Shown piece after piece: positions 5,867-62,894 of a stretch of 64,000 nt of DNA. Each line of letters starts with the position of its first letter. The stretch's first letter is position 1. The stretch is taken from positions 39,219 through 103,218 of the IMG/VR virus record IMGVR_UViG_2974602649_000001; one strand, given 5' to 3'. Both the position numbers and the translations under genes were made by a program. The notes beneath the pieces were generated by a model. The model was not told the origin of the DNA and did no database searches. It saw only the letters and a list, made by a program, of their open reading frames with translations. The DNA is from a virus (taxonomy: Duplodnaviria; Caudoviricetes).

Positions 5867-6100
5867 ATGTACATTGATCCAAAGAGATTTGAAATTAGTG
5901 ACCGTAGTGAATCATTCAGTACTTATAATCTGAACATTTCAGATAACTGTGTTGCTGGTTTGGGCCTAGGTCTAGGACACAGTGTCGAGACACTCCCTTA
6001 CCAGATCACTCAATATAAGCCAGAAAAACCATTCGTCGTAATTGACGGTGTAGTGTATGTTAACGCAAAATTCATTAAGGAGAACACCATTGAAGTATGA
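5867..6100 (+). CDS. 77-aa protein resembling the gpJ C-terminal (DUF1983-like) region
   Basis: VAGLGLG...PFVVIDGVVYVNAKFIKENTI matches this phage's gpJ VAAGIGLG...PFVVQGGQVFIADAMINKATI; SD AAGGAG. Confidence 0.7.
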   Translation: MYIDPKRFEISDRSESFSTYNLNISDNCVAGLGLGLGHSVETLPYQITQYKPEKPFVVIDGVVYVNAKFIKENTIEV

Positions 6101-6503
6101 AATTCGAGTAACCAGTATTGATCCACTTGGCTTCAGTATGCTCAACGATGTCATCAGGCTCGCCGCTGAAGGCGCTGTGCTCAAAGAAGGTGTCTACCCT
6201 GTGCTCAGCTTCCCATACATCGTAACTCTTGAAATTGAGGCAGATGAGCCTCCTGTAGCGAGTGCTACTGTTCGAGTCTTCGAAATGGAATCGCGAAAAG
6301 AGATTCTTCCACCAGTTGCAGAACCAGTTAAGGCGAGTACTTTCTCTCTGGGTGAAGATCCTGACAAAGTATATACACGGGAAGAGTTGGATGCAATGGA
6401 GTGGACTCAAGTTCAAGACATCGCACGCAATAAAGGAATCACGGGCAAGCAAAGGAACAAAGTAACTAACGCTTATCTGGCTCTTTTCGATAAAAGTCAA
6501 TAA
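6090..6503 (+). CDS. Hypothetical protein with a C-terminal Rho-N/HeH-like helical motif
   Basis: TTG start after SD AAGGAG; YTREELDAMEWTQVQDIARNKGITG. Confidence 0.7.
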   Translation: MKYEIRVTSIDPLGFSMLNDVIRLAAEGAVLKEGVYPVLSFPYIVTLEIEADEPPVASATVRVFEMESRKEILPPVAEPVKASTFSLGEDPDKVYTREELDAMEWTQVQDIARNKGITGKQRNKVTNAYLALFDKSQ

Positions 6504-6512
6504 TAACTGATT

Positions 6513-6549
6513 GCCCCTATTGACAAACATGGGGGCTTTCCTACATAAT
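6513..6549 (+). promoter_or_regulatory. Overlapping hairpin and promoter upstream of terL
   Basis: GCCCCTAT/ATGGGGGC-TTT hairpin whose loop holds most of TTGACA (6520); CATAAT at 6544 (N18). Confidence 0.6.
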
Positions 6550-6589
6550 AAGTCTTATGTGGAGGATAAAGCTCTACTAGGAGGATTGA

Positions 6590-8068
6590 ATGTCTAACAT
6601 TGTCCGCCCCCAATCGCCATTCCAAGTTAAGTACCTAAACAGCAACGCAAAGATTCTTGTTGTTGGTGGTGCAGCAGGTAGCTCTAAGAGTTACGTAGGC
6701 TTGATGAGACATTTGCGATGGGCAGAAGATCCGCTGTATAATGGTTACTGTATCCGTAAAAACAGTAACACTTTGATGAAAGCAGGTGGCTTGTTCCAAG
6801 AAGCAATCGCCCTGTATTCCAAAGTATATCCAAATCTCACAGTTCGTTGGAAAGACCAACGTATTGTTTTCCCTTCTGGTGCATCTGTAACGTTTGCTCA
6901 CTATGAGAACGACGCAGCGTATATGCAATACCAAGGGCTTCAGTTGTCTAACGTCTTCTATGATGAGGCAACACACGCAAGTGAAGAACACATCTGGTGG
7001 TTGGTATCTCGACTGCGTACAGCAGCGAACGTTAACCCCGGAATTTGGCTATCCTGTAACCCTGATCCTGACAGTTTCCTGTTTGACTGGGTTAAGTGGT
7101 GGCTCTACCCTGAAGGTCATCCTCAACACGGTATTGCTGATCCTGAGAAGAACGGTGTAACTCGTTACTGCCTTCGAATCAATGGTGATATGGTCTGGGG
7201 AGATACGCCGGAAGAACTTACTTCCAAGTACGGGGAAGACAAGAAACCAATTGCATTCCAAGTGTTGCTGGGAACCTTGATGGACAACCCAACACTTATG
7301 GAGATGCAGCCAGAGTACAAATCAAACCTTGAAGCACTTCCAGAAGTTGAGATGCGTAGATTGCTTCTCGGTGACTGGACTGCCCGTGAGGAAGGTAGCA
7401 CATACTTCCAGCGGTCATGGTGTGGCGAAGAAGCACTGATGGAACCTCCTAAGTCTGAGATTGTTCGTACAGTACGAGCATACGACTTTGCTGGTACATT
7501 GAAGTCTAGTGCAAACCCAAGTCCTGACTATACAGCCTGTGTAAAAATTAGCAAGTTGAAGAACGGTAATTACTTCGTCCATGATGTACAACGTACACGT
7601 ATCCTTTACGGTGATTGGGAGAAATTCATTCTCGACAACGCAGCAAGGGACGGCAGAGACTGTGACATCATCATCCCGCTTGACCCGGGTGCTTCTGCAA
7701 AGCTTTCAACATCGCTTCTGACCCGTGCTATCAGTGAACGTGGTTATCGTATCAGGACCATGCGAGCAACGCAAGCTAAACTTGATCGATTCCGACCATT
7801 CAGTTCCTTAGCGATGAACGGTCACGTACAGTTCCTCAAGGGTTGTGCATACGACTTTGAGAACAACATTGAAGCGAACAACACATTTATGTACCGAGAG
7901 CTTGAAGCTTTCAATGGTAAGAAACGAAGTGGTGAATCTGGTCACGATGACATTTGTGACGCCATTAGTGACGCCATTGGTATCCTTGCTCAACGTCAAG
8001 CAATTCCAAGCATGGTGCATGCTCTTACGAGCACACGCCTTTCCCACAGTACCCCTTTCGATAATTAA
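6590..8068 (+). CDS. terL: Terminase large subunit
   Basis: PQSPFQ adenine motif, GGAAGSSKS Walker A, YQGLQ...FYDEATH Walker B, SCNPD, RAYDFA and HDDICDA nuclease motifs. Confidence 0.96.
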   Translation: MSNIVRPQSPFQVKYLNSNAKILVVGGAAGSSKSYVGLMRHLRWAEDPLYNGYCIRKNSNTLMKAGGLFQEAIALYSKVYPNLTVRWKDQRIVFPSGASVTFAHYENDAAYMQYQGLQLSNVFYDEATHASEEHIWWLVSRLRTAANVNPGIWLSCNPDPDSFLFDWVKWWLYPEGHPQHGIADPEKNGVTRYCLRINGDMVWGDTPEELTSKYGEDKKPIAFQVLLGTLMDNPTLMEMQPEYKSNLEALPEVEMRRLLLGDWTAREEGSTYFQRSWCGEEALMEPPKSEIVRTVRAYDFAGTLKSSANPSPDYTACVKISKLKNGNYFVHDVQRTRILYGDWEKFILDNAARDGRDCDIIIPLDPGASAKLSTSLLTRAISERGYRIRTMRATQAKLDRFRPFSSLAMNGHVQFLKGCAYDFENNIEANNTFMYRELEAFNGKKRSGESGHDDICDAISDAIGILAQRQAIPSMVHALTSTRLSHSTPFDN

Positions 8069-8077
8069 GGATGAGAG

Positions 8078-9613: not shown

Positions 9614-9622
9614 GGAGGTATT

Positions 9623-11005: not shown

Positions 11006-11033
11006 TTTATCAACCTATAAGAGGATTTAACTA

Positions 11034-11489: not shown

Positions 11490-11553
11490 GTAACTTCGAA
11501 AACTTTGAGGGACGTTGTTCCCTCTACCTTTTAATTTATATAGGAGTATCTTC

Positions 11554-15573: not shown

Positions 15574-15885
15574 TTGTATGTGAGAGAAACATCGGTTCAC
15601 CAAGCAGGCATGTTCGGTCTTACACTTGAGGAACTTCCACAGGAAGACTACCTCATTTGGGATTGTAACTGGCCTGCTTTCGATGTATTCAGCAACATGG
15701 CCACACAGTGGCGTGTTGGATTTAACGGTGCCATTGGTCTTGATTACAACGCAATCCCCTTCACGGCAAAGTGTCTAGGATACAAAAACAAACAAGTTAA
15801 AGCAATGTTCCCTGACCTACAAGTGATGGAGAACGAAGCACTCATCACTATGGGGGAGAATCAGAAAAATGCCGACAATCGCTGA
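15574..15885 (+). CDS. Tail chaperone gpT part (DUF1799-like), reached by frameshift
   Basis: TQWRVG..GAIGLDY...LQVME; no SD of its own. Confidence 0.85.
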   Translation: MYVRETSVHQAGMFGLTLEELPQEDYLIWDCNWPAFDVFSNMATQWRVGFNGAIGLDYNAIPFTAKCLGYKNKQVKAMFPDLQVMENEALITMGENQKNADNR

Positions 15886-18800
15886 ACTGCAAGTAAAGGT
15901 AGACAGTACACAACTTAAAGATGGTAAGCAAGCATTCAATGAATTTGCGGATTCTGCAAAGAATGCTAGTGATGCTGTCAACAAGTTCAAAGGTGGCAGT
16001 GCTGGGGGCGGTATTGCCCCCGAGGCTGAGACAAGCAAAGTTAAGAACCTTTCTGCAAGCATTGATGACCAGACTCGTAAGCTACAGAACTTGGCAACCC
16101 AACGTAAGGCTCTAGAAGCCTCCGGGATGAAGACTACTGACATCAATGAATACACACGCCTTAACTCTATTATCGATGCTAATATCGCCCTTGTAGAGCG
16201 TCAAGGCACTGCTGTTAGTCGTTTGACAAGCTTGGAAGACAAAGACCTTCAGAAGAAAACTCAGAAGGCTGAGCAGGAAGCACGCATCCAAGAAAACATC
16301 GTAAAGGCAACTGAGCGAAAAGACCTTGTGATCACAAATGCTTCTGCTCGTGAGCAACGTAGTATCGAGCAAACAATCAATGGTCTTGATCGTCAAATCA
16401 AGGCACAGAATGATTATAACAAAGCTATCCAGAATCTGAGTAAGGCTCGTGCTCTCTCCGGTATGTCTGGTCCAGATGACAGTCGAACTACAATGTCCGG
16501 GGCTGAATTCGATTCCTACACAAAACTGGCTGCTGCTCAACGCGATGCGAAGCTTGCTGTTATGGACTACTCTGCGGAGATGGATCGTGTAAGAAGCAAG
16601 CTTGATACCTACACTGCAACACTGAGTCGTACTGACCGTGCTGAAGTTGAGCATAAACGATCAATCGAAGTTTTGAACGAAGCTCGTCGTCTTGGTATTG
16701 TAACGCAAGATGAGTACGATGCTAAGCTCGCTCGTTTTAATGAACGATTGGAATCTGTAAAGAAAGGAAACGAGGGTGCTGCAATCAGTACCGAGCGTTT
16801 GTCTAAACAAATGAACCAAGTTACTGGTCGATACGATGCAGTGACAAAAGCAATGAACAACCAGACAGTTGCTGAGCAAATCCTCACACAAGCAAATGAG
16901 CGTGGTCTGATTAGCACCGAAGACATGACTAAGGCTTTGCAAGGTTACTCTGCTGCGGTAGAAAAGGCAAAAGCAAAAGTAGCTGGTCCTGACATTGGCG
17001 AGGAGTTTGAGCGGGGACTGGATGATGTACTTGCGTATCGAACAGAGTTGCGTAACTTGGAGCTTCAAGAGAAACGTCTGCAAGACATGCGAAGCTCTGG
17101 TCGTGAACTGACTGATACACAACAACGTGATTTGGATCGGGCAACTACAGCACTTCAGAAGAACCGCGAAGCTCTTGAAAAACGAATTCGTACTGGTGAA
17201 AATGCTGGTATGACGTACAAACAAGAACAAGCAGCCCTTCGTGGTATGCCTGCTCAGATTACCGACATCGTGGTTTCCTTGCAAGGTGGTCAAGCACCAC
17301 TGACTGTACTCTTGCAACAAGGTGGTCAGATTAAGGATATGTTTGGTGGTGTTGGTGCTGCCATTCGTGGTATGGCTACAACTCTGGTTGGTATGATCAA
17401 CCCATTCACTGTTGCTGCTGCTGTCATGGGTACGCTGGCAATTGCTGCCTACCAAGGTGGTAATGAACTTAACGAGTTCAACAAAGCATTGATTCAAACT
17501 CGTGGTGTAAGTGGTGCAAGTGCAAACGACTTCACCGCAATGCGCACTGAGCTTGATGGGATTACTGGTACAGCAAGTCAAGCTGCTCAAGCACTGACTC
17601 TTATGGAGTCGTCTGGTAAGATTGCATCTGGTTCGTTTGTAGAGATTGGTGAAGCTGCAATCCTCATGCAGAAAGCAACAGGTCAAGCAATGAGTGAAAC
17701 CATTGAAGACTTTGCTTCTCTTGGTAAGGATCCAGTTGATGCTGCAATTCGTCTTGATGAGAAGTATAAGTTCCTGACGGGTTCTGTAATCGCTCAGGCT
17801 GCTGCTCTGGAAGAACAAGGTCGTAAGCAAGAGGCAGTAACGCTTTTGCAAGGTCGTATGGCAGAAGCTGCTACAGAAGCTGCTAAGACTATGATTGAAG
17901 AGGCTGGTTGGATTGAGCAGGCTTGGAATGGTGTAAAGGGTGCAGTAAGTGATACATGGGATGCTCTGAGGGGCATTGGTCGTGAAAGTACTGCTCAGTC
18001 AGAACTCGATGAGGTTCTTGCGAAACAAAAGGAAATCTATGACCTTGCTCGTGGTAACGAAGCTGCTCTTAAACGAAATAGTAAGTATCAAGAACTCGAA
18101 GCGGAACGTCGAGTATTGCAAGCACGAGTTGATACTGAAAAGTCTCTGGCTGATTACCAAGCAAAGCGTGAAATTGATCGTCAGAAAGATGTAGCTTACA
18201 CTAACCAGATGGCAAATGCTTCCCTCTCTAACTTGGCTACACTCGACAAGGTTCAAGCAAAAGAAGAGGCTTTGAAGAAAGTTCAAAGGGAACAGGCGGA
18301 ACAACGTGAACGAGTGAAGCGTCTAGGTCGTGACCTGAGTGCTGATGAAGTACGCAACATGGACCGTGCTCTGGCTGCTGCTAAACAAGAATTGAAAGAT
18401 GCTCAGGAAGCACAAGCCAAGAAAGGTGGTCGAGGTGCAATTGACACTCGTGAACTCACTGAAGTAAAATCCAACCTGAAAAACATCACTGCTGAATACG
18501 ATGGCTACTACAAGAACATCACTGCTCTCGGTAAAGCTAACGTTGTAAACGCTGAGGCGACATATCGTTCTCAGATGGCGGTGTTGCAAGCTCAGGAAAA
18601 AGCAGTATCTGATTCCTTTGGTAAAACCATTTCCGAACTTGAGCGTCTGCGTGGTGCGAAAGGAAACACCGCTGCCCAAAACATCTCTCTTGATAATCAG
18701 ATGACAAAAGCTGAGGATGAAAGGGTTAGGGCAGTAGAGGCAATCCAAAACAAACAAGAACAACTGACCATTGCCTTCCAAGGTGACATGGAAAAGCGTA

Positions 18801-19843
18801 GAGCTTCGATTGATTCTTACACCGATGCAATTAAAGAACAAGTGCGAGCATTGCGTGAGCAAGGTGATCGTGCTGTTGCTGGTGTTGGTATGGGTTCCCG
18901 CCAATCCGGTGTAGCAAACCAGCAGTACGACAATGACTTGTGGTACGCAAAAGAAAAACGCAGACTGTCTGAGGCGTTAACTGCCAACAAGATCGATGAC
19001 AATGAGTACAAGGAAAAGTACGCTACTCTGAAAGCAGCACACAGTGAGATGACTGATGTCATCATTGAAAATGACCGAAAGGTTCAGGAAGCAAACGCTG
19101 ACTGGACAAACGGGTTCACTGCTTCAATTCAGAACGCACAAGATGCTGGTATGAACTTTGCTGGTAATATGCAAACGGCATTGACTGGAGCATTTACATC
19201 AGCAGGTCAAGCATTTGCAACATTCGTCACTACCGGTAAGTTGAGCTTCCAAGACCTCACACTTAGCATCATCAGTAACATGGCTCAGATTGCCGCCCAA
19301 CAAGCTGCAATGGGTGCTCTGGGTGCATTGTTCGGTGCTATTGGTGGAGGCATCGGGGGTGGTGGTAATGGATTGGCAGTAGGTTCGGCTGGTTACACTA
19401 GCTCTAACTTGGGTGCATCTGCTGCTGGTTATTCTAGCAAGTACTTTGCAAAAGGTGGAGCGTTTACTGGTGGTACTCAGTACTTCGCAAACGGTGGAGC
19501 TTTCACAAACGGTATTGTATCGTCTGCAACATCTTTCGGGATGGCTAACGGAAACCGGGGAGTGATGGGTGAAGCTGGTCCAGAGGCAGTTGTCCCACTC
19601 ACAAGAACCAGCAATGGTGACTTGGGTGTTAGGATGGTAGGTAATGATGGTTCTGGTGGAAACACCAACATCGTAAACGTAGTTGTAAACGTATCGGATG
19701 ACGGCACCCAAACATCTACGGATGGTGGAGGTGACTGGAACTCGTTTGGTTCTCAACTGGGTCAATTCGTTGACCAGCGTGTTTACACTATCATCAACAA
19801 AGAAACACGAGGTGGTGGCTCCCTTCAGCCTCAAAAGCAGTAA
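15869..19843 (+). CDS. Tape measure protein (lambda family)
   Basis: 1324 aa, Ala/Gln-rich helical; PAQITDIVVSLQGGQAPLTVLLQQGGQIKDMFGG; FANGG...GEAGPEAV C-terminus. Confidence 0.96.
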   Translation: MPTIAELQVKVDSTQLKDGKQAFNEFADSAKNASDAVNKFKGGSAGGGIAPEAETSKVKNLSASIDDQTRKLQNLATQRKALEASGMKTTDINEYTRLNSIIDANIALVERQGTAVSRLTSLEDKDLQKKTQKAEQEARIQENIVKATERKDLVITNASAREQRSIEQTINGLDRQIKAQNDYNKAIQNLSKARALSGMSGPDDSRTTMSGAEFDSYTKLAAAQRDAKLAVMDYSAEMDRVRSKLDTYTATLSRTDRAEVEHKRSIEVLNEARRLGIVTQDEYDAKLARFNERLESVKKGNEGAAISTERLSKQMNQVTGRYDAVTKAMNNQTVAEQILTQANERGLISTEDMTKALQGYSAAVEKAKAKVAGPDIGEEFERGLDDVLAYRTELRNLELQEKRLQDMRSSGRELTDTQQRDLDRATTALQKNREALEKRIRTGENAGMTYKQEQAALRGMPAQITDIVVSLQGGQAPLTVLLQQGGQIKDMFGGVGAAIRGMATTLVGMINPFTVAAAVMGTLAIAAYQGGNELNEFNKALIQTRGVSGASANDFTAMRTELDGITGTASQAAQALTLMESSGKIASGSFVEIGEAAILMQKATGQAMSETIEDFASLGKDPVDAAIRLDEKYKFLTGSVIAQAAALEEQGRKQEAVTLLQGRMAEAATEAAKTMIEEAGWIEQAWNGVKGAVSDTWDALRGIGRESTAQSELDEVLAKQKEIYDLARGNEAALKRNSKYQELEAERRVLQARVDTEKSLADYQAKREIDRQKDVAYTNQMANASLSNLATLDKVQAKEEALKKVQREQAEQRERVKRLGRDLSADEVRNMDRALAAAKQELKDAQEAQAKKGGRGAIDTRELTEVKSNLKNITAEYDGYYKNITALGKANVVNAEATYRSQMAVLQAQEKAVSDSFGKTISELERLRGAKGNTAAQNISLDNQMTKAEDERVRAVEAIQNKQEQLTIAFQGDMEKRRASIDSYTDAIKEQVRALREQGDRAVAGVGMGSRQSGVANQQYDNDLWYAKEKRRLSEALTANKIDDNEYKEKYATLKAAHSEMTDVIIENDRKVQEANADWTNGFTASIQNAQDAGMNFAGNMQTALTGAFTSAGQAFATFVTTGKLSFQDLTLSIISNMAQIAAQQAAMGALGALFGAIGGGIGGGGNGLAVGSAGYTSSNLGASAAGYSSKYFAKGGAFTGGTQYFANGGAFTNGIVSSATSFGMANGNRGVMGEAGPEAVVPLTRTSNGDLGVRMVGNDGSGGNTNIVNVVVNVSDDGTQTSTDGGGDWNSFGSQLGQFVDQRVYTIINKETRGGGSLQPQKQ

Positions 19844-21047: not shown

Positions 21048-21857
21048 ATGATCCCAAAGAAACTCAAAGCGAAAACAATCAAAGCAATCAAAAAGCATGC
21101 TGAGCAAGGTTACCCTAATGAGGTTTGCGGGGTTGTGGTTATGACAAGTACTGGAGAGCAATACGTCGAGTGTGTCAACCTTAGTTCGGATCCAACACAA
21201 GAATTTCAAATGTGCCCAGAGTCTTATGTTAAAGCAGAAGAACTTGGTGAAGTGGTCGGCATTGTTCATAGTCATCCCGATGGTACTAGCTACCCTAGTG
21301 ACACTGACTTGGCTGTGATGAACAACAGCTATGAAATCCAGCTTATGGTTGACCCAACCTCTAAACCTATTCCATGGCACATCGTATCATGGCCAGAAGG
21401 CGATTACCAGCAGGTTTTACCCGAGGACATAGGGTTGATTGGGAAAGACTTCATTCACGGTTTAAACGACTGCTGGGCAGCTTGTGAGGCATATTACAGG
21501 AAGTACCACAACCTTGAGTTCCCCCGTTATGAGCGTGAGGATCTTTGGTGGGAAAATGCAAACAGCACATCTCTGTATGAGAAAAACTTCAAAGAAGCTG
21601 GCTTCTATGCGGTGGAGGATTATAAACCGGGTGACATGATCGTCATGCAGATCGGTAAAAGTCATTTCCCTAACCATGCCGGTATTTATCTAGGTGAGAC
21701 AAAAGAGTTTGAAGGGAGAGAGTTCTACGCATCCCCACTTATGTATCATCACATGTACAATCGAAAAAGTGAAGTCGTTGTGTATGGTGGTCAGTGGCTG
21801 CAACGTACTCGACTCATCTTGAGGCACAAAGGAGTAAAACATGGCAACGTGGATTGA
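21048..21857 (+). CDS. Tail assembly protein (gpK-like; JAB plus NlpC/P60)
   Basis: YPNEVCG, VHSHPD, DCW, NHAGIYLG. Confidence 0.93.
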   Translation: MIPKKLKAKTIKAIKKHAEQGYPNEVCGVVVMTSTGEQYVECVNLSSDPTQEFQMCPESYVKAEELGEVVGIVHSHPDGTSYPSDTDLAVMNNSYEIQLMVDPTSKPIPWHIVSWPEGDYQQVLPEDIGLIGKDFIHGLNDCWAACEAYYRKYHNLEFPRYEREDLWWENANSTSLYEKNFKEAGFYAVEDYKPGDMIVMQIGKSHFPNHAGIYLGETKEFEGREFYASPLMYHHMYNRKSEVVVYGGQWLQRTRLILRHKGVKHGNVD

Positions 21858-22434
21858 GGTAAAACCCGCTGGCTATCTAAAGAAGTTTGGTAATCATAAG
21901 TTCTATGTTGATAGTCCAGCAGAAGCAATTAAGGCAATGATGTTTCAAGTAAAGGGCTTCAAAGAAGCATTCTTTGCTGCTGAAAAGAAAGGACTTCGGT
22001 TTCAAGTACTGAGTGATAAACTCCAAGTCACTCACCCTGACATGTTGCTGATGGGGGAACCTAAAGTTGTAAAGATTGTTCCACGACAATACGGTAGGAA
22101 GAATGGTGGATGGGGAATGATCCTCGCTGCTGCTGCAATTGCCGCTGTTGTTCTCACAGGTGGTGTTGGTGGTTTCTTTGTAGCCGGTACTGTCTCTGGT
22201 AGCATTGCAACATCTGTAGCCATCTCTTTCGCACTTGGTGGTATTACACAACTAATGACACCAGCACCCGAGGGTCTGAAAACAAGAACAGATCCTGAAA
22301 ACAAAGCATCTTATGCATTCGGCGGTCCTGTAAACACAACAGCACAAGGTCAACCAGTCCCTGTTTTCTACGGATATCGGGAGGTCGGCGGTGCTGTTAT
22401 TTCTGCAAGTATGACCTCTGAAGATCAAAAGTAA
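21841..22434 (+). CDS. Tail assembly protein (gpI-like)
   Basis: SYAFGGPVNTTAQGQPVPVFYG..EVGGAVISA. Confidence 0.93.
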   Translation: MATWIEVKPAGYLKKFGNHKFYVDSPAEAIKAMMFQVKGFKEAFFAAEKKGLRFQVLSDKLQVTHPDMLLMGEPKVVKIVPRQYGRKNGGWGMILAAAAIAAVVLTGGVGGFFVAGTVSGSIATSVAISFALGGITQLMTPAPEGLKTRTDPENKASYAFGGPVNTTAQGQPVPVFYGYREVGGAVISASMTSEDQK

Positions 22435-22458: not shown

Positions 22459-25400
22459 ATGATCCCTCACATCCATGGTATGAAAGGTGGTTCTCAGAAA
22501 CCACACACTCCTGTAGAAACACCTAACAACCTCCTGTCGGTTGCTTATGCCAAGATTCTTATGGCAGTTGCAGAAGGTGAGCTTGCTGGTAACCCAACTG
22601 CTCAGGACATTTTCCTCGACGGCACTCCTTTGGCTAACGCTGACGGTTCTTTTAACTTCGACGGTGTAAAGTGGGAGTGGCGTTCTGGTACTCAACATCA
22701 GACTTACATCCAAGGTATGCCAGAAGTTGCAACTGAGTACAACATTGGTACTGAGTTGACTAACGTAACTAGCTGGACTCGTACGGTAACCACCCCGGGT
22801 CTTGACGCTGTTCGTATCACGATGCAGTTCCCTGCTCTGTTGAAACAAGAAACAAACGGTGATACCAATGGTACTTCTGTTGAGTTTGCAATCGACATGT
22901 CTCCAATTGGTCAACCGCTTACTGAAGTTGCTCGTTATACCGTAACTGGTAAAACCAACCAAGCTTATGAAAAGACTTACCGGGTAGACCTCCCAGCTAG
23001 TACTCGTGGGTGGACTGTTCGGGTTCGTCGTGTAACACCAGACAGTACGTCGAGTATGCTCCAGAACAAGACTGTTGTAAAGTCCTATACTGAAGTGAAA
23101 GACCTGAAGCAAACCTACCCACACACCGCTCTGCTGTACGTTGAGTTCGACTCCCGTACCTTTGGTGGTGGCAACATCCCTAAGATTAGTGTTCGCACCA
23201 AAGGTCGTATCGTTCAAGTACCGTCCACGTATGATCCTGAGGCTCGCACTTACACAGGTGTCTGGTCTGGTGACTTCAAATGGGCATGGACAAACAACCC
23301 TATTTGGGTTTACTATGACCTCGTTACTCAAGATCGTTTCGCACTGGGTCACAAGATCACACCAGACATGGTGGACAAGTGGGCGCTGTATGAGTTGGCA
23401 CAATACTGTGACGTAATGGTTGATGATGGTACTGGTTTTGGTGGTAAAGTTCCACGCCACACCTGTAACGTTTATATCCAAGAACAGCAAGATGCTTATC
23501 AGGTACTTCGTGATATTGCAGGCATCTTCAACGGTATGACCTACTGGGATGGCAACAAGATGGTTGCTGTTGCTGACAAGAAAGAAGACCTGACGAATGC
23601 TCCAATCTTCTCTCGTGCTAACGTTGTCAATGGTCGTTTCGATTACCCAGCAGCAGACGATAAGTCGATTTACACAAGTGCTCTGGTTAGCTTTGATGAT
23701 CCAGACAACCACTATGAGTCCACTGTGGCTGCAACTTGGGAACGTTCTCAGATGCAACGTTGGGGTGGTGATCGTCAGACCAACCTTAGTGCAATCGGTT
23801 GCACCTCCCGTTCTGAGGCTCAGAGACGCGGTAAGTACGTCTTGCTGACCAACATGTACAACCGTATGGTTAAGTTCCGTACTGGCCTTCAAGGGCTTGA
23901 TCAAGCTGTTCTACCGGGTAGTATCATCCATGTAGTTGACCCACTGATGGGTGGTCGTCCGTTTACTGGTCGAGTCGCTGCTGTAGTCAACCAGCGTCAG
24001 ATCTACCTTGATCGTGATTCTGGTGCAAAAGTTGGTGATACTCTGTACGTTACCCTGCGTAATGGTAAAACAGAAGGTCGTCAGATCATGCGCATTGGTG
24101 GAAACTCTGTCACCGTTAGTACTGCATACACTCAAGATCCACCGATCAACTCTGTGTGGTATCTTGAATCGTCCGACCTCAAGTCTCAACTGTTCCGTGT
24201 GACTAAGGTAACAAACCCAGATCCAGCAGTATTTGAGATTGAGGGTGTAGAGTACAACGAATCCAAGTATGATGCAATCGACAACGGTGCTCGACTGGAA
24301 TCTAGACCAATCAACCAAGTACCTGACCGCATGCAGCAAGCACCTGCATCCGTTAACATCACTTCCCGCACATATGTCGAACAAACAATGGCGGTAACCA
24401 CTATGACCATTTCTTGGCCACAGACACCAAACGCTGTTAGTTATGAAGTACAGTGGCGTGTTGGCGATGGTGACTGGGTAAACGTTGGCGTAACTGGTGC
24501 TAACGAGATTGACATTAAAGGTATCTACGCTGGTGAGTATCTGGCTAGGGTTCGTGCTCGAAACAGCATCGGGATTGGTTCTGTATGGACAACATCCACG
24601 CTTACAAGCCTCGCTGGTAAAGCTGGTAAACCGCCAACCATTGCAAGCTTGACGACAACCCCAATGTTCTTCGGTATTCGTTTGGACTGGACATTCCCAC
24701 CGGGAGCTACAGACACACTGAAGACTGAAATCATGTACAGCCAGAATGCAAACTTTACATCTGCAATTAAACTTGGTGACTTCTCCTATCCTCTGGATTA
24801 CAATGAGATGCACGGTTTGAAAGCTGGTCAGAAGTTCTGGTTCTGGACTCGGTTGACAGACCGCACCGGTAACGTTGGTGACTGGTATCCAGCAACTAAC
24901 CTCCCGGGTATTGTTGGTACAGCAATGATCAACGACGATGGTCAATACAATGACTATTTGGCTGGTATGATCGGTGAAACAATGCTTGACAAAGCACTGT
25001 ATGAGCGTCTAGAATTAATTGATGGACCTAGCCCAGATAGTTTGAAAAACCAGATTACTTCTGTGGCAAATAGGGTAACCATCAACGAAGATCGTATTAC
25101 TGATGCAGAGAACAGCATTACCGAAGTTACTGGTGATTTGAACCAGTACAAAACACAAACAAACAATCGACTGACTGCTGCTGAGGCAAGTATCACTAAG
25201 GTGAACGGCGACCTCAATACATTCAAGGTGGAAACAAACGCCAAGATTACAGCAGCCAACCAAAAGATTGATGGTATTAACGCCTCGTTGACAACTAAGA
25301 TCAACGATACAAACACCAAAGTTGATAACATTAACACTGCTCTGGGCCAGCGAATTGATGCGACTAACACCGCATTGAATGCCGCTGTGACTGACTTGCA

Positions 25401-28227
25401 AGACCAGATTGATAACATCTCGGATGCTCTGCTCTATGACCCAACCAAGACTTACGTCAAGGGTGATGTTGTTCGTATGAACAATCGGTTGTATCAGGCA
25501 CTTGGGAACGTACCGCTGAACAGCCCTCCACCTAATGCAGCACTGTGGCAGGATATCGGTTCGTACGGTGAAACAATCAATAACCTCACAATTAAGGTTG
25601 ACAAGAACACCCAGGATATCGGTCTGATTGACGGTAAACTGACTAGTACTGTTGAGTCCCTTGACCTTATGCGTGCAGCGTACCGTCAAGATGATGGTGA
25701 AGGTTCTCTGCAAGATGCATTGCGTGGGTGGGAAAGTGAGGCTACAATTGCAACAGAGATGCTTACTCGTGCGAACGAAGACGAAGCTCTGGCACAGCGT
25801 ATCACCACAATGTCCGCTCGTGTTGATGAGAGTGAAGCCAAGATCAACTCTATGGAACAAACGATTGCAACCAATGAATCGGCAATGGCCCAACGAGTGT
25901 ACTCGCTTCAAGCTGAAGTCATGGATAACCGTACTGAAATTCTCTCCCTGAACAAGGTAGTGGCTGAAACTAACCAAGTTACAGCAGAACGTTTGGACTC
26001 CATGAGTGTTGCGATTAACGAAACAAAAGGTAGCATCAGCAGCCTGAGTGAAGTGGTGGCAACTAGCAACAATGTATTGGTTCAACAAGTAAACACACTG
26101 AGTGCTGAGCTTAAAAACTCAAACGCAATAATCTCTGATATCACAACAGTTATCATTGATAACAACCAAGCTCTCGTTGAGCGGGTGAATCAGATTGATA
26201 CTCGTGTAGGAACTGCTGAGACTAATATTACTACTCTCACCCAGACAGTTACAACAAACAACAACGCAACTAACCTTCGGATTGACAATCTGACTGCAAC
26301 AGTTGGTCAGAACACGGCTAAGATCGGAACATTGGAAACAACGGTTGCTAACGAAAAGACAGCGACTGCACAGCGTTTCGAGACGATGCAAACCGAAGTT
26401 GATGGTAACAAGTCGGCAATCACAAGTCTCACTGAGACAGTGACAACAAAAGATACGGCTACCAACCAGCGTATTGACAGCTTGACTACCAAGGTAAATG
26501 ACAACTCTGCTGCAATCACAACTCTGAGTGAAACTGTGACGGATCTTGAATCGGCAACAGCTTCCCAGATCACTCAACTTACAACCCGTGTTGGTAAAGC
26601 AGAGAGTGACATCACAACTCTTGCGCAGACCGTAACCACAAAGGACACAGCGACCAACCTTCGGATTGACACGCTTACTTCCAAGGTTGACGGTAACACT
26701 GCCAAGATTGGAACTCTTGAAACTACTGTGGCAACCGAGAAGACAGCAACCGCACAACGGTTCGCTACAATGCAAACTGAGGTTGATGGTAACAAATCAG
26801 CAATCTCGACATTGACTGAAACGGTAACCACAAAGGACACAGCAACTAACCAACGGATCGATACCTTGACAACTACGGTCAATGGTAACACTTCGGCAAT
26901 CACTAACCTGACTAAGACTGTTACAGACAACAACTCTGCGACGGTAAGTCAGATCAATGCGTTGACTACCCGGGTAGGTACTACTGAAACAAATATTACC
27001 ACATTGACTCAAACAGTCAACACCAAAGATGCAGCAACAAACCTGCGTATTGACAATCTGACCGCAACTGTTAACCAGAACAAGGCAGATATCAGCACTA
27101 TGCAAACAACAATCGTGAACAACGAGTCGGCAACGGCTCAGAAGTTCCAAACAATGCAAGCTGAAGTCAACGCAAACAAGGCGAATATTAGTACACTGGA
27201 AACAACAGTTGCTACTAACAATACAGCAATTAACACTCGTGTTGATAACCTCACCGCTACTGTTGATGGAAACACTTCTAAGATCACAACTCTGACGGAG
27301 ACTGTATCCACGCTGGAATCGTCTGTGGCAAGTATCCAAACTGACATTAGCGCAATCCACACAGTGGGCCGTGACGATGATGGTGAGGGTGACTTGAATG
27401 CTGCTCTGGGTGACTGGGGAACGCAGGCAAACATTGCAACTGAACAGAAGGTTCGTGCGGATGCTAACGAGGCTATGGCTTCGATCATCACTGACCTGAG
27501 TGCTAAGTTTACAACCGATATTGCATCCATGCAAGCGACCATCCACGAAGAGAGTGTTGCTCGGGCAACCGCTGACGAAGCCTTGGGTCAGCGGATTGAT
27601 ACTGTACAAGCTAACTTTGTAACTGAGCAAGGTCGAGTTAACGGTTTGATCCAAACTGAACAGACCACTCGTGCAAATGCTGACATTGCTCTCGGGCAGC
27701 GTATCGACACTGTACAGGCAACTGCCGGTAATAACTCTGCTGCAATTCAAACGCTGACATCTGCTCAGGCTAGCACTGACGGTAAGGTGAATGCTTCGTG
27801 GCAGGTTAAAATGGAGTTGAACGCACAAGGTCAGTACGTAGCTGCTGGTATTGGTCTGGGTATTGAGAACGGTCCAGCCGGTCTTCAGTCTCAGTTCCTT
27901 GTAAGGGCAGATCGGTTCGCAGTTGTAAACGGTGTCAATGGTACAACGTCTGCTCCATTTGTTGTTCAAGGTGGACAGGTGTTTATTGCCGATGCAATGA
28001 TCAACAAAGCAACAATCACAAACGCAATTATTGGTAGCACCCTCTCGTCCCAGTATTCAACCACTTGGGGTCCGGCATTGCCAACCTTGGTAATCAGCTT
28101 CGCGCAGGATGGTGCAATTGTAATGCGTAACCAAGTCCGACCAAACACTTACGCAACATATACGCCTGATGGTGTCAATATTGTTGTTGACGGTGTTACT
28201 CGTGTTCGGATGGGTACATGGCAATAA
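22459..28227 (+). CDS. Central tail fibre/host specificity protein (gpJ-like) with a long coiled-coil insertion
   Basis: AEGE, IFLDGTP, WAWTNNP, FN3-like region, CBM-like module, 32-aa repeats, GIGLG...ADRFAV C-terminus. Confidence 0.96.
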   Translation: MIPHIHGMKGGSQKPHTPVETPNNLLSVAYAKILMAVAEGELAGNPTAQDIFLDGTPLANADGSFNFDGVKWEWRSGTQHQTYIQGMPEVATEYNIGTELTNVTSWTRTVTTPGLDAVRITMQFPALLKQETNGDTNGTSVEFAIDMSPIGQPLTEVARYTVTGKTNQAYEKTYRVDLPASTRGWTVRVRRVTPDSTSSMLQNKTVVKSYTEVKDLKQTYPHTALLYVEFDSRTFGGGNIPKISVRTKGRIVQVPSTYDPEARTYTGVWSGDFKWAWTNNPIWVYYDLVTQDRFALGHKITPDMVDKWALYELAQYCDVMVDDGTGFGGKVPRHTCNVYIQEQQDAYQVLRDIAGIFNGMTYWDGNKMVAVADKKEDLTNAPIFSRANVVNGRFDYPAADDKSIYTSALVSFDDPDNHYESTVAATWERSQMQRWGGDRQTNLSAIGCTSRSEAQRRGKYVLLTNMYNRMVKFRTGLQGLDQAVLPGSIIHVVDPLMGGRPFTGRVAAVVNQRQIYLDRDSGAKVGDTLYVTLRNGKTEGRQIMRIGGNSVTVSTAYTQDPPINSVWYLESSDLKSQLFRVTKVTNPDPAVFEIEGVEYNESKYDAIDNGARLESRPINQVPDRMQQAPASVNITSRTYVEQTMAVTTMTISWPQTPNAVSYEVQWRVGDGDWVNVGVTGANEIDIKGIYAGEYLARVRARNSIGIGSVWTTSTLTSLAGKAGKPPTIASLTTTPMFFGIRLDWTFPPGATDTLKTEIMYSQNANFTSAIKLGDFSYPLDYNEMHGLKAGQKFWFWTRLTDRTGNVGDWYPATNLPGIVGTAMINDDGQYNDYLAGMIGETMLDKALYERLELIDGPSPDSLKNQITSVANRVTINEDRITDAENSITEVTGDLNQYKTQTNNRLTAAEASITKVNGDLNTFKVETNAKITAANQKIDGINASLTTKINDTNTKVDNINTALGQRIDATNTALNAAVTDLQDQIDNISDALLYDPTKTYVKGDVVRMNNRLYQALGNVPLNSPPPNAALWQDIGSYGETINNLTIKVDKNTQDIGLIDGKLTSTVESLDLMRAAYRQDDGEGSLQDALRGWESEATIATEMLTRANEDEALAQRITTMSARVDESEAKINSMEQTIATNESAMAQRVYSLQAEVMDNRTEILSLNKVVAETNQVTAERLDSMSVAINETKGSISSLSEVVATSNNVLVQQVNTLSAELKNSNAIISDITTVIIDNNQALVERVNQIDTRVGTAETNITTLTQTVTTNNNATNLRIDNLTATVGQNTAKIGTLETTVANEKTATAQRFETMQTEVDGNKSAITSLTETVTTKDTATNQRIDSLTTKVNDNSAAITTLSETVTDLESATASQITQLTTRVGKAESDITTLAQTVTTKDTATNLRIDTLTSKVDGNTAKIGTLETTVATEKTATAQRFATMQTEVDGNKSAISTLTETVTTKDTATNQRIDTLTTTVNGNTSAITNLTKTVTDNNSATVSQINALTTRVGTTETNITTLTQTVNTKDAATNLRIDNLTATVNQNKADISTMQTTIVNNESATAQKFQTMQAEVNANKANISTLETTVATNNTAINTRVDNLTATVDGNTSKITTLTETVSTLESSVASIQTDISAIHTVGRDDDGEGDLNAALGDWGTQANIATEQKVRADANEAMASIITDLSAKFTTDIASMQATIHEESVARATADEALGQRIDTVQANFVTEQGRVNGLIQTEQTTRANADIALGQRIDTVQATAGNNSAAIQTLTSAQASTDGKVNASWQVKMELNAQGQYVAAGIGLGIENGPAGLQSQFLVRADRFAVVNGVNGTTSAPFVVQGGQVFIADAMINKATITNAIIGSTLSSQYSTTWGPALPTLVISFAQDGAIVMRNQVRPNTYATYTPDGVNIVVDGVTRVRMGTWQ
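25843..27360 (+). repeat. About 16 x 96-bp (32-aa) coding repeats with a 384-bp higher-order period inside gpJ
   Basis: Blocks start at 25843, 26227, 26611, 26995 (384 bp apart); e.g. IGTLETTVANEKTATAQRFETMQTEVDGNKSA recurs almost exactly. Confidence 0.9.
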
Positions 28228-28260: not shown

Positions 28261-28566
28261 ATGGCTGGTACTGGCATGCAGGTATTCACAAGTACTGGAT
28301 TACTTGTGATGGATCTTACAAGATCCTACAGTCAACATCAAGGAAGTTTTACAACAGGTGCTGTTGCTGGCTCGGGGACGATGGAGCCTCTTCCAGCAGG
28401 AAAGCAGCGTTTCTATTTCATTGTGGGTCTTGGTAGTAACACAAGTTCAGTTGGTCATCTACCGGGTGTAACTATTTCAGGTAACACTTGTTCATGGTCG
28501 TATCAACACACTGACTGGTTTGGTCACTATTCACAAAACGCAATGATTCACTATGGATATTTCTAA
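28261..28566 (+). CDS. Tail tip-associated protein (putative)
   Basis: Follows gpJ; GMQVF..TG.L..D N-terminus. Confidence 0.65.
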   Translation: MAGTGMQVFTSTGLLVMDLTRSYSQHQGSFTTGAVAGSGTMEPLPAGKQRFYFIVGLGSNTSSVGHLPGVTISGNTCSWSYQHTDWFGHYSQNAMIHYGYF

Positions 28567-28575
28567 GGAGGTGTA

Positions 28576-29469: not shown

Positions 29470-29484
29470 CATAGGAGTCATTAT

Positions 29485-37997: not shown

Positions 37998-38231
37998 TCA
38001 TCTTGCACCCTCCACAGTTACGGTCACTTTACATTCAATGAATGTGCTCAGATCATAATCGGATGCATCGTACTTGATCTGCGGTCGATTGAAGTTCACA
38101 AGACTTTGCCCGGGTTGGCAAAGAAAAACTTCATCTTTTGCCCCACCAGTTACACCGAGATAAGTCTTTCCTACATCAAGGTCACAGGCTCGAATCTGCC
38201 TTGGTGCGATGCTCTTGACTACAACTTCCAT
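37998..38231 (-). CDS. Hypothetical protein (distant family A)
   Basis: DL.VGKTY...FIECKVTV. Confidence 0.65.
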   Translation of the reverse strand: MEVVVKSIAPRQIRACDLDVGKTYLGVTGGAKDEVFLCQPGQSLVNFNRPQIKYDASDYDLSTFIECKVTVTVEGAR

Positions 38232-38419
38232 TAGATTTCTCCTTCATCAAAAATTGCGGCGTTAAATTGTAACCCTTGAATCTTTCGAACCTCTGGGTCA
38301 GCAAGGTCTATTGTAACCACCTCCCAACCATTCAGTCTAGCGATTTCTTCAACCATTTGAGTTCTGGTTGACTTGCCTTTGGATGCCTTACTTGAGTCTT
38401 TAGCAATCAGAATCTTCAC
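38231..38419 (-). CDS. 62-aa protein with terminase ATPase-like Walker A/B peptides
   Basis: MKILIAKDSSKASKGKST...KIQGLQFNAAIFDE; SD GGAG, GTG start, coupled on both sides. Confidence 0.7.
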   Translation of the reverse strand: MKILIAKDSSKASKGKSTRTQMVEEIARLNGWEVVTIDLADPEVRKIQGLQFNAAIFDEGEI

Positions 38420-56980: not shown

Positions 56981-56996
56981 GCTTAGGAGAAAGTAT

Positions 56997-59809: not shown

Positions 59810-60017
59810 GATTCGATTGGTAGAAAAGATCGAAGGTAAGGTACTGCTAGCAGCAGTTGACTTCAGTACTGAGGACGACACTTATGGCAATGTGCTGGAA
59901 GTCACAACTATTGCTGAGTTTGAAGACATGGAGAAAGCACGTATCTTTATCGACAGTGCTTATCGTGCATCGCTGAGTGGTGTTGTATATGAAGTTGAAG
60001 AGGGGGAGTTTGTGTGA
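59799..60017 (+). CDS. Hypothetical protein
   Basis: SD AAGGAG before MNSEIR. Confidence 0.68.
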   Translation: MNSEIRLVEKIEGKVLLAAVDFSTEDDTYGNVLEVTTIAEFEDMEKARIFIDSAYRASLSGVVYEVEEGEFV

Positions 60018-60165
60018 GTGGGTTTATTGTAGCAAGTCCGTCATGGATCACAGTAGAACGCTATAACACTCATGATGAGGCTGTTGCTCGAAAGAATCAA
60101 CTTGAAAAGCTGGGTGGTGCAAAAATGACGGTTTATCAATTGAAAGAAGTAAGAGAGGAGGTTGA

Positions 60166-61188
60166 ATGATCAAACAAAAGAAGTGGCATGCGTCCGCAAT
60201 TGATATGCGTCAAGATGGTTACAGTAGTCGTGAAATTGGTGAGATTCTAGGCAAAGGTAAGACCACCATTAATGACTTCTTCAAGAAGCACGATAGTGGT
60301 CAGACGTTTGAGAGTCTTGAATGGGACAACCAAGTCGCTAGTACTCTTGAGTTGATTGAAAGCACAAAGGATCTTATTGCTTCAAAACTTCAGCTAAACG
60401 GTACGTACGGGGCAACTGCTCAGGGTCCAAAGATCCTGTTCATTGACATTGAGACTTCTCCAATCATTGCTCATGTCTGGCGTTTGTTTGACCAGAATGT
60501 TGGTTTGAACCAGATTGAGACGGACTGGTCTATCCTGAGCTTCTGTGCGAAGTGGAAAGGTGTTGACGAAATCATTTATATGGACACTCGAAACCAAGCG
60601 GACTGTAACGATGATTCTTGTCTTTTGGACGCTCTGTGGAAGCTTTTGAATGAGGCAGACTTTGTTGTCGGTCAGAACTCTAAGCGCTTTGACGTTAAGA
60701 AGATCAATGCTCGGTTCATTCTCAATGGTATGCCTCGTCCAAGTACGTTCAGGCAGATCGATACATTCGAGATTGCAAAGCGTCTGTTTGGATTCACCAG
60801 CAATAAGCTGGAGTACATGACCGACAAGCTATGTGTGAACTACAAGAAAAAGAAACACTCTAAGTTCCCGGGTCATGAGCTTTGGGCACAATGCTTGAAA
60901 GGTAACATGGAAGCTTGGCAAGAGATGCAGGAATACAACGAGTATGACGTACTGTCTCTTGAGGAGCTTTATGACATCTTTAGCTCGTGGGATGACAAGC
61001 TTCCAAACTTCGATACCTATGTTGATGGTATTCTGGACATGACGGTTTGGGAAGAGGATGGTTTCCATTACACCAACTTCGGTAAGTTCCAGCGTTACCG
61101 CAACAAAGAAACTGGGCAACAGCGTCGGTCCCGTACCAACTTGCTGTCTAAAGAAAAACGTCAACAACTTCTGTCTAACATTGTATAA
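60166..61188 (+). CDS. DEDD/RNase H-like 3'-5' exonuclease with N-terminal HTH
   Basis: GYSSREIGEILGKGKTTI; FIDIETSP, QNSKRFD, IDT, YNEYDV. Confidence 0.87.
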   Translation: MIKQKKWHASAIDMRQDGYSSREIGEILGKGKTTINDFFKKHDSGQTFESLEWDNQVASTLELIESTKDLIASKLQLNGTYGATAQGPKILFIDIETSPIIAHVWRLFDQNVGLNQIETDWSILSFCAKWKGVDEIIYMDTRNQADCNDDSCLLDALWKLLNEADFVVGQNSKRFDVKKINARFILNGMPRPSTFRQIDTFEIAKRLFGFTSNKLEYMTDKLCVNYKKKKHSKFPGHELWAQCLKGNMEAWQEMQEYNEYDVLSLEELYDIFSSWDDKLPNFDTYVDGILDMTVWEEDGFHYTNFGKFQRYRNKETGQQRRSRTNLLSKEKRQQLLSNIV

Positions 61189-61200
61189 GGAGAAATAAAC

Positions 61201-61692
61201 ATGGCTACTATTATCGAACAAATGAATATCCAAATTGACGCTACTCAGGCTCAAGCAATGCTTGATGAAATGATTGAGAAGCTTCAGATGAATGAGCAAC
61301 AGATTCTTGAGGCTGGTATTTTCAACGGTCTTGAACTACTGCAAGGAATCATCTACCAAGGTAATGTGAAAGCTGGCTGGTGGACTAACCTACAAACTGG
61401 TGAACTGAAACCAAAGGGTGATGTAACTGAGATTCTGGCAAAGCTTGCTCTGGTTCATTCGGAAGTAAGTGAGGGTCTGGAAGGTGTTCGTAAAGGTCTG
61501 ATGGATGACAAGCTTCCGCACCGACCAATGCTCGAAGTTGAACTGGCAGACGCAGTGATCCGCATCATGGACCTGTGTGGTCATGAGGGTCTGGATCTGG
61601 CGGGTGCTATTCGTGAGAAACTGGCATATAACGCACAACGTGCTGACCATAAGATTGAGAACCGTATGAAAGATGGTGGGAAAAAGGCGTAA
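61201..61692 (+). CDS. MazG-like nucleotide pyrophosphohydrolase
   Basis: LALVHSEVSEGLEG.RK...EVELADAVIRIMDL...K..YN..R. Confidence 0.88.
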   Translation: MATIIEQMNIQIDATQAQAMLDEMIEKLQMNEQQILEAGIFNGLELLQGIIYQGNVKAGWWTNLQTGELKPKGDVTEILAKLALVHSEVSEGLEGVRKGLMDDKLPHRPMLEVELADAVIRIMDLCGHEGLDLAGAIREKLAYNAQRADHKIENRMKDGGKKA

Positions 61693-61742
61693 TGCCTTTC
61701 ACCACTATTGATTTCAATAAGACATGGAGGAGTGATTTAACT

Positions 61743-62894
61743 ATGAGTAAGACTGACCCTAAGTTCTATCTTGGTGATGTTGTAATGTTCAACAGTGTCT
61801 GGGGCTATCCTGACGGTGCCGCTGAGGATGTTGAATATACCATTGTGGAGAAAGTAAAGACTGGTGGTTGGCAACTAGAAACCGGCATTAACGGTCACAC
61901 AAAGCAAATTAGTCTTGAGATTGTTCGTCGGAAGCCGTATGATTTCATTCTGGTGAAACGTGGTGAGATTACCCACGATGTGTACGACCAGATTGAGGAA
62001 CTGAAAGCTCTGGTTGACATGTTGCGTACTGCCAACACAGCTAATGCTGCTACACTTTGTGGTGTCCAGTCTAGTGTCAGTACAGCACAGGTCGATTTGA
62101 GGTCGCTTCATGAAGGTCAAGCGGAAATGCAAGAACAAATTGACAACCTGTGTGAGCGTGTGGATGCTTCAGAAACTCGGGATGCTGTAACAAACATCAA
62201 CAACACGGTCAACAAGTTTGAACCATTTGAAGTTTATGTTGATGGGGTGCTCCGTATTAGTATGGGAATGTGGGATGACAACCCTAAGCAAATTCATTTG
62301 ACTAGTGATAAAGAGTACGCCGAAGGTGGTATTGCTTCTTATGATGCATCGAAGGCACCGTTGTTTGGTGAGTGTAGCAGCGACTTTGTAATGCCAATGA
62401 CTCGTGGTCTTAATGGGCGACTCACCCCAATCCCGGGTGCTTATGTCACCGATCCAATCAACATCACAGTCAACAGTGAACCTGCGGAAGAGTACAGTGA
62501 CTTTGCACAGCAGCTTGCGGATCATATTGAGAAAACTGGAAGGCGTGTGATTTCTGAAGGCTTTACCCAGATGAAACAAGGTGAAGTAGCTTCGACCGAG
62601 AGTAGCGAACCTATTCGCAGTACTGGTGGTTCGTCCAGTTACTATGACCTCCCGTTGAGTGACAAACTTATGAACAAGTTGTTTGATCGTTGGGAGGAAG
62701 GCAAAGCCCACATTCGAACTGAGGAGCTTATTGAAGAGGCATTCGACAATGACTTTGACTTTGGTACAGCATTCAAATCTCTGGTCCGGGTACGTGGTAC
62801 GACCAAAGGTGGTGGTAAAGCCGGTAACGATGTTGGCTACGAATGCAATAAGATCGACTGGTCGGTAAACAAAATCCGAGAAAAACACTCGTAA
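61743..62894 (+). CDS. Mosaic protein: SH3-like N-terminus, coiled coil, gpJ-like and TMP-like C-terminal peptides, TGGSSSYY domain
   Basis: Internal similarity to gpJ and TMP of this window; STGGSSSYY...FDFGTAFKSL C-terminal domain. Confidence 0.7.
   Translation: MSKTDPKFYLGDVVMFNSVWGYPDGAAEDVEYTIVEKVKTGGWQLETGINGHTKQISLEIVRRKPYDFILVKRGEITHDVYDQIEELKALVDMLRTANTANAATLCGVQSSVSTAQVDLRSLHEGQAEMQEQIDNLCERVDASETRDAVTNINNTVNKFEPFEVYVDGVLRISMGMWDDNPKQIHLTSDKEYAEGGIASYDASKAPLFGECSSDFVMPMTRGLNGRLTPIPGAYVTDPINITVNSEPAEEYSDFAQQLADHIEKTGRRVISEGFTQMKQGEVASTESSEPIRSTGGSSSYYDLPLSDKLMNKLFDRWEEGKAHIRTEELIEEAFDNDFDFGTAFKSLVRVRGTTKGGGKAGNDVGYECNKIDWSVNKIREKHS

Follow-up and report, generated by a model that had tools for sequence, protein, structure and literature searches.

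Stand-alone copies of central-fibre and tape-measure modules in a lambda-type siphophage, and their possible roles

Here, we analysed the final 64 kb (bases 39219-103218, hereafter the window) of the 103,218-bp IMG/VR record IMGVR_UViG_2974602649_000001, a siphophage whose tail is of the lambda type according to its gene order and Pfam domains. Within the window, three open reading frames (ORFs) of 77, 62 and 383/400 amino acids (aa), designated c77, c62 and c400, had been proposed in an original prediction to encode miniature decoys of the phage's own virion-assembly proteins, namely the central tail fibre gpJ (c77), the terminase TerL (c62), and gpJ together with the tape measure protein (TMP) (c400). 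Comparison with profiles built from homologues shows that c77 and c400 are genuine, diverged and conserved stand-alone copies of tail-tip interaction modules, from which the rest of the parent protein is missing. Their conservation points to selection, because in both families the invariant columns are those of the motif. The likeness of c62 to TerL, by comparison, was indistinguishable from that of shuffled sequence.

Gene calling on the whole 103-kb genome yielded 198 proteins, every one of which was aligned to TerL, gpJ and TMP with shuffled controls, amounting to 585 protein-versus-parent tests. Judged by these whole-protein pairwise alignments alone, a check suggested along with the decoy proposal, none of the three ORFs stood out, as c62 ranked 69, c77 ranked 64, and c400 ranked 2 and 18 with TMP and gpJ, respectively. 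Profiles built from homologues were needed because pairwise self-alignment alone would have dismissed both c77 and c400. For comparison, we used Pseudomonas phage vB_PpS_SYP, the closest named phage (TerL 70% identical), and three further related IMG/VR genomes (G001-G003). As described originally, all three ORFs are present and normally placed inside operons, each with a Shine-Dalgarno-like site.

A gpJ fragment in the packaging operon

The 77-aa protein c77 (5867..6100, + strand) carries in its C-terminal ~25 residues (6026-6097), together with a Gly-rich stretch (5951-5974), a copy of part of the Phage_Tail_Tip domain of gpJ. The latter is a protein of 1922 aa (22459..28227, +) with FNIII-A_GpJ and Phage_Tail_Tip domains; the tail-tip domain occupies residues 1762-1865, and the parent of the c77 motif lies at 27955-28017. 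Phage_Tail_Tip (PF09327) is also the sole Pfam match of c77 (E 0.033, 14.4 bits, profile positions 68-93), and when the 103-kb genome was scanned with this model in all six frames, gpJ and c77 alone were returned (12.7 bits for c77). The curated cut-off of 22 bits was missed by c77, and its homologues scored 19.4, 14.9 and 14.2 bits. As c77 spans ~26 of the 139 profile positions, and the corresponding ORF of the relative L006 positions 101-132, these proteins represent fragments and not whole domains.

Several lines of evidence connect this fragment specifically to gpJ. By tblastn, the weak matches of c77 were all to gpJ proteins, bar one syntenic homologue in vB_PpS_SYP. When a hidden Markov model (HMM) of the motif was built without c77, from its syntenic homologues only, and run against the 198 proteins, c77 came first, followed by gpJ residues 1833-1853 (E 7.7e-5), with gpJ scoring 13.1 bits, whereas 20 shuffled proteomes gave 6.3 at most. 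Furthermore, c77 aligned to the C-terminus of phi80 gpJ with a score of 55, which was equalled in 0 of 1000 shuffles. Against gpJ C-termini, z scores were 5.8-8.9 for the vB_PpS_SYP homologue, up to 6.7 for the L007 protein and 3.1-4.3 for c77 itself, while pairwise alignment of c77 with its own whole gpJ gave a z of only ~1.5. The similarity of c77 and its family to gpJ is hence specific and exceeds chance, and homologue-based profiles confirm c77 as a diverged stand-alone copy of a gpJ Phage_Tail_Tip fragment.

The gene is located in the late packaging/head operon, directly downstream of a TerS-like gene (5432..5857, +; Pfam DUF5681, E 2e-10) that is kept in all relatives and from which it is separated by 9 nt. 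Between c77 and TerL (6590..8068, +; Terminase_6N and Terminase_6C) lies a conserved 148-aa gene with no assigned function (6057..6503, +), which all relatives have 5' of TerL and for which a weak DUF7440 match is the only one. The order in relatives is likewise a DUF5681 TerS-like gene, a small gene, a conserved gene of ~140 aa, and TerL; either the latter ~140-148-aa gene or the DUF5681 gene could be the real small terminase. The slot of c77 is occupied by a small gene in the window, in vB_PpS_SYP and in L006, L007 and L008, and is empty in L003/G002 and L004; syntenic c77 homologues are found in L001, L007 and L008. The distribution of the family is accessory, since some close relatives have it and others do not.

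What the family members have in common is one C-terminal motif of ~25 residues and nothing else, and the invariant columns of their alignment are those of the gpJ motif. Four members carry Phage_Tail_Tip positions ~65-93, whereas the L006 member has the last ~65 residues of gpJ in their place (z 7.8), and its Pfam match covers positions 101-132, not 68-93. Up to a sharp junction, the N-parts of the L006 and L007 proteins are ~74% identical and their DNA nearly so throughout, and beyond it the two carry different gpJ pieces; the junction marks a clean cassette swap of gpJ fragments. Coiled-coil N-parts are found in the L006, L007 and L008 members, and neither a coiled coil nor a recognisable anchor is found in c77 and its vB_PpS_SYP homologue (60-77 aa). 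The slot thus holds proteins in which an N-part that varies, and is often a short coiled coil, is joined to an exchangeable distal-gpJ fragment. A word-indexed homologue search with c77 retrieved c77 itself only, and a DNA-level search against phages gave no match. Outside the window, a 108-aa protein (G000:C1:32790-33116, -) with a 9-residue stretch resembling the c77 motif was the third-best match of the motif HMM (8.7 bits), probably by chance.

A tape-measure module among nucleotide genes

The second copy, c400 (61743..62894, +; phrog_4521, E 1e-148), comprises 383 aa from its likely start at 61743, which is backed by a GGAGG 12 nt upstream and by homologues beginning there; the ORF itself opens at 61692 (400 aa). 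The protein consists of an N-domain (61755-61991), a coiled coil (61971-62213), a hairpin resembling the gpJ end (62223-62273), a module resembling the TMP C-terminus including its terminal helix (62295-62591), and a DUF3310-like C-domain (62604-62891). Its parent, the separate TMP of 1324 aa (15869..19843, +), contains TMP_2 and Tape_meas_lam_C domains and has its C-terminal module at ~19436-19813. None of the tape-measure core domains (TMP_2, TMP_3, PhageMin_Tail) is present in c400.

Residues 177-345 of c400 align with the last 174 residues of TMP with a score of 52 (z 5.1; 0 of 1000 shuffles equal), collinearly and with the terminal helix included. An HMM made from homologues only found c400 and then, as its first non-self match, TMP (E 0.0017; 10.6 bits vs a shuffled maximum of 5.7), and an HMM of the homologues P0009 and P0011 had gpJ 1908-1921, i.e. 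its last 14 residues, as first non-self match (E 2e-4). The c400 counterpart of this gpJ end (terminal hairpin, 28180-28221) is residues 178-194, and a hairpin of this kind occurs within the TMP module as well. The TMP C-termini of four phages were matched by all five family modules (z up to 8.4). Furthermore, residues ~202-300 of c400 keep the invariant Gly, Glu, Pro and Arg positions of the TMP module along with the terminal helix. The high ranks of c400 in whole-protein alignment with TMP and gpJ (z 2-4), by contrast, reflect coiled-coil composition only.

A search of 1.84 billion representative proteins with a module-only profile returned 89 matches at E up to 1e-3, and those outside the c400 family are to long proteins, near their C-ends. 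Tape-measure Pfam domains were present in 5 of 10 sampled matches, and 8 of 10 shorter matching proteins hit tape-measure PHROGs. Thus, c400 contains the conserved TMP C-terminal module, and its middle is confirmed by these profile and shuffle comparisons as a "mini tape measure" made of a coiled coil, a gpJ-end-like hairpin and the TMP C-terminal module. The expectation that only short motifs of the parents had been retained applies to c77 and partly to c400: the rest of the parent is gone in both, but the c400 match (177-345) is longer than a short motif. Another matching protein, P0099 (228 aa), has an N-domain without assigned function (phrog_28084 and others; MazG/DUF550-like by eye) joined to the same module, and would represent its second, independent fusion to a protein other than a tape measure.

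The 14 relatives of c400 have in common the N-domain and a strongly conserved C-domain, separated by a variable middle. Only five members, c400, P0009, P0010, P0011 and P0014, have the TMP-like middle, and among these the invariant columns are the motif columns of the module; in the remaining members, the majority of the family, the middle is made of unrelated segments without a TMP module. Two complete relatives have no member of the family, and in G001 the copy comprises the C-domain but gave no TMP-module match. The C-domain also exists as a stand-alone protein of ~95 aa in many Aeromonas, Acinetobacter and Vibrio phages. Its nearest Atlas cluster (cosine 0.92) has DUF3310 in 11% of members, a lead only, and no DUF3310 (PF11753) Pfam match to the C-domain was obtained at E up to 5. 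Neither Pfam nor NCBIfam provided a family for the c400 domains, and a sequence search of the PDB came back empty. In the AF2 model, the N- and C-domains are confident, and the low-confidence middle has a long helix (94-174), a hairpin (236-246) and a further helix (266-296); the VIA wide fold search with c400 found generic helical hairpins only (Z <7).

In the window, c400 is preceded by a MazG-like pyrophosphatase gene (61201..61692, +; phrog_5658, E 1e-76) and followed by a thymidylate-synthase-like gene (62945..63958, +; phrog_85, E 6e-87). This context is conserved throughout the family, whose genes always lie 3' of a MazG-like, dUTPase or endonuclease VII gene and directly 5' of a thymidylate synthase gene (ThyA-like or ThyX), with ribonucleotide reductase and glutaredoxin genes nearby downstream (window 61201-63958; L015, L020, L021, L022); P0009, P0010, P0011 and P0014 are found in the same deoxynucleoside triphosphate (dNTP) cluster. 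The conserved neighbourhood suggests a role of the family tied to dNTP metabolism. Judging from this position amid replication and nucleotide genes, c400 is probably made before the tail proteins.

The TerL match and the tail gene order

The 62-aa orphan ORF c62 (38231..38419, -), with a Shine-Dalgarno-like site in an operon on the early strand, falls outside the mimic pattern. Its Smith-Waterman score against TerL, 35, was equalled by 23 of 300 shuffles, and when long gaps were made cheap, so that Walker A-like and Walker B-like matches could chain, the score was reached in 216 of 1000 shuffles. We detected no homologues of c62 in 50,697 phage records or in G001-G003, and no Pfam, PHROG or NCBIfam match. 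On direct reading, its would-be Walker A begins with Ser and not with Ala or Gly, and is thus not canonical. Its nearest Atlas entries are generic beta-alpha-beta or flavodoxin-like fragments with scores <0.9. With shuffle-level values in all three tests (its rank of 69 included), no homologues and no canonical Walker A, c62 was rejected as a TerL relative or P-loop ATPase, and its likeness to TerL is, on the alignment statistics, a matter of chance, aided by a strand-loop-helix pattern that is generic to folds of this kind. A ParA/MinD-like arrangement seen by eye in its N-terminal 45 residues (strand, deviant Walker A, helix, strand) found no support from any profile.

Accordingly, the proposal of in-frame copies in three genes stands for c77 with gpJ and for c400 with TMP and the gpJ end, under both homologue HMMs and shuffles, and fails for c62, which matched no family in profile searches. 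Similarity no better than shuffled sequence, named beforehand as grounds for rejecting the idea, was thus encountered with c62, but not with c77 (against phi80 gpJ) or c400. Because the c62-TerL likeness is chance, the argument from a pattern found three times, now seen twice, falls together with the suggested link between a terminase mimic and Avs/STAND sensors.

The genuine parents are part of a lambda-type tail cluster, which starts with genes for the tail tube protein (start 14443), the tail assembly chaperone (start 15155) and a DUF1799 protein (start 15574), and continues with TMP, gpM, gpL and gpK, a gpI-like insertion protein (21841..22434, +) and gpJ. The gpI-like protein, encoded between gpK and gpJ, has a conserved hydrophobic stretch and a C-terminal motif. 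In lambda and T1, the terminal helices of TMP come together as a three-helix bundle that sits on the gpI tripod, within the lumen of the tip (PMC10721106, PMC11945409). In gpJ, the FNIII region is separated from the tail-tip domain by ~900 residues of repetitive coiled coil (residues ~860-1760; window 25000-27700), and in the relative G002 the open frame with the gpJ match extends to 3084 aa. No Pfam family matches the three genes 3' of gpJ (28261-31047; 101, 297 and 520 aa), which are, from their position, candidates for receptor-binding or side-fibre proteins.

Possible competitive mimicry, other readings and known systems

What could be the function of an isolated tail-tip module? As only the interaction module is kept, and none of the remainder of the parent, c77 and c400 would most likely be competitive mimics, and we tentatively favour this reading of the sequences, with a decoy function as one variant. 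Accordingly phrased as a model, c77 and c400 would display the binding surface of their parent and thereby occupy whatever normally binds the distal gpJ end or the TMP C-end. This partner might be a tail-assembly blocker of the Tai/Tab type encoded by the host or a prophage (the decoy variant), or else a component of tail-tip assembly, either of the same phage or of a co-infecting one. Mimicry is supported by the accessory distribution, the conserved module residues, the cassette swap and the retention of the module only. It is also supported by the position of c77, which resembles that of anti-Tab, i.e. gp30 of Pseudomonas phage JBD26, a protein that binds Tab, a blocker directed at the tape measure (PMC10884400). 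The anti-Tab gene follows terS in JBD26 (PMC10884400), and c77 likewise lies directly behind the TerS-like gene, although no tab-like partner gene adjoins it. Similarly, TaiEcA of phi80 blocks tail assembly and is escaped by mutations in the gpJ C-terminal region, and the tai gene and that of its counter-defence protein AtiEcA (76 aa) adjoin packaging modules (PMC11364771).

A number of observations weigh against competitive mimicry. A co-variation of mimic and parent was looked for and not found, as the copies resemble the gpJ or TMP of relatives no less than those of their own phage: members of the c77 family are closer to each other than to any gpJ, with the gpJ of a relative often nearer than their own, and c400 fits the TMP of G003 better than its own. 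A coiled coil joined to a beta-motif or cap is the ordinary architecture of trimeric fibres. Docking of c400 in the tail tip of its own phage would poison assembly there, unless c400 is itself a virion component, and c77 belongs to the late operon, not to an early region. Known counter-defences provide no precedent either, since anti-Tab has no sequence similarity to c77, c400 or the JBD26 tape measure, and Ati bears no resemblance to phi80 gpJ. The TMP segment sensed by Avs18 is a central one that c400 lacks, and not the C-terminal module (PMC13581612). Finally, the stand-alone Phage_Tail_Tip gene of L030 (see below) is placed within a tail module, flanked by the genes for the tail terminator and the tail tube, a setting that suggests that proteins of this kind function in the virion. 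The decoy reading of c77 and c400 is neither supported nor excluded. Its most explicit form, in which this phage and a small clade of relatives would make target-mimic sponges, namely a swappable gpJ-fragment protein encoded behind terS and a mini tape measure expressed early, to titrate Tai/Tab-type blockers or other binders of the fibre and TMP ends, we consider unlikely.

A close, if likewise tentative, rival is that both have a minor structural or assembly role: members of the c77 family would serve as tiny trimeric fibres or decorations, with an oligomerising N-part, a gpJ-type beta cap and exchangeable tips, and c400 would dock in the tail tip or lumen via its TMP-like module and might accompany the tape measure when this is delivered during infection. 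The late packaging/head operon of c77 and the L030 gene are in line with this, as are the L006, L007 and L008 versions, which start with a coiled coil and have their tips swapped as in fibre genes; however, c77 itself and its vB_PpS_SYP homologue have neither coiled coil nor recognisable anchor. For c400, the copying of the entire TMP C-terminal module, including the helix seated on gpI in lambda and T1 (PMC10721106, PMC11945409), and the attachment of an unrelated N-domain to the same module in P0099 also count in favour of this reading. Yet the c400 family is always encoded in the dNTP cluster by thymidylate synthase and not among virion genes, most of its members lack the module, and proteomic data that might place these proteins in virions were found for no relative, vB_PpS_SYP included. 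Somewhat less probable, in our opinion, is plain module reuse, whereby gpJ-type hairpins and the TMP module are general trimerisation or capping units that were captured by recombination and only oligomerise, with no link to tail assembly or defence. Indeed, the motifs follow a coiled coil in gpJ, TMP, c400 and the L007/L008 proteins, other c400-family members fill their middle with unrelated segments, and the copies are old and diverged (~25% identity) and do not track their parents. Against this, the module profile finds almost only TMP C-termini among the 1.84 billion proteins, which argues that the module is not a widely used general unit; the Phage_Tail_Tip model matches gpJ and c77 only, genome-wide, and there is no coiled coil to cap in c77 and its vB_PpS_SYP homologue.

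The full version of the original prediction, in which three decoys including a TerL mimic absorb Avs/STAND sensors, Tai and Tab before the real proteins appear, is very improbable. It can draw on the general evidence for mimicry and on the Shine-Dalgarno site and early-strand operon of c62, but it suffers from the shuffle-level TerL match and missing homologues of c62, from the late-operon position of c77, and from the absence in c400 of the segment recognised by Avs18; furthermore, a decoy for an abortive-infection sensor must bind the sensor without activating it.

To date, the building blocks found here are known from other contexts. Phage_Tail_Tip (PF09327, formerly DUF1983) is the sole model matched, below its curated cut-off, by c77 and its relatives. 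A full stand-alone member of this family is the 175-aa protein of L030 (L030:2872-3399, IMGVR_UViG_3300046660_000005; E 3.5e-13, 50 bits). The L030 phage is unrelated and high-GC; in the protein, the order of the gpJ motifs is permuted and a coiled coil lies at the C-terminus. In the literature, we found no function described for stand-alone forms of Phage_Tail_Tip, and no terS-adjacent family of exchangeable gpJ fragments. Likewise, the TMP C-terminal module of lambda gpH, T1 gp38 and the RcGTA tape measure is collinear with c400 ~202-300; unlike these tape measures, c400 lies in the dNTP cluster, has no tape-measure core, and carries unrelated N- and C-domains. The C-domain was likened to DUF3310 and SaV-like small phage proteins through the Atlas cluster only. 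The lactococcal SaV protein is a determinant of sensitivity to AbiV. No DUF3310-type early protein with a TMP C-terminal module was found in the literature. Among the defence-related proteins, Tai had no match in this phage, and comparison of anti-Tab, Tai and Ati with c77, c400 and the gpJ and TMP of their own phages revealed no reproducible similarity. A weak match of Ati to c77 (9 of 1000 shuffles) falls in the non-conserved N-part of c77 and is absent with every c77 homologue, and a relationship between the two was rejected.

Both families present known building blocks in a new form and do not yet amount to a demonstrated system. If they are virion parts, they would represent unrecognised minor tail or neck components, and c400 might be a means by which a DUF3310-type protein is loaded into the tail. 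If they are mimics, they would instead reveal a new principle of anti-defence or inter-phage competition and offer handles on the proteins that bind the gpJ and TMP ends. The tail-assembly-blocking defences Tab, Tai and Bil are recent discoveries, and our literature searches revealed no description of a central-fibre or tape-measure decoy. The counter-defences known so far bind the blocker without resembling its target; a sponge built from the target itself, should c77 and c400 prove to be such, would be the first protein-mimicry counter-defence protecting virion assembly.

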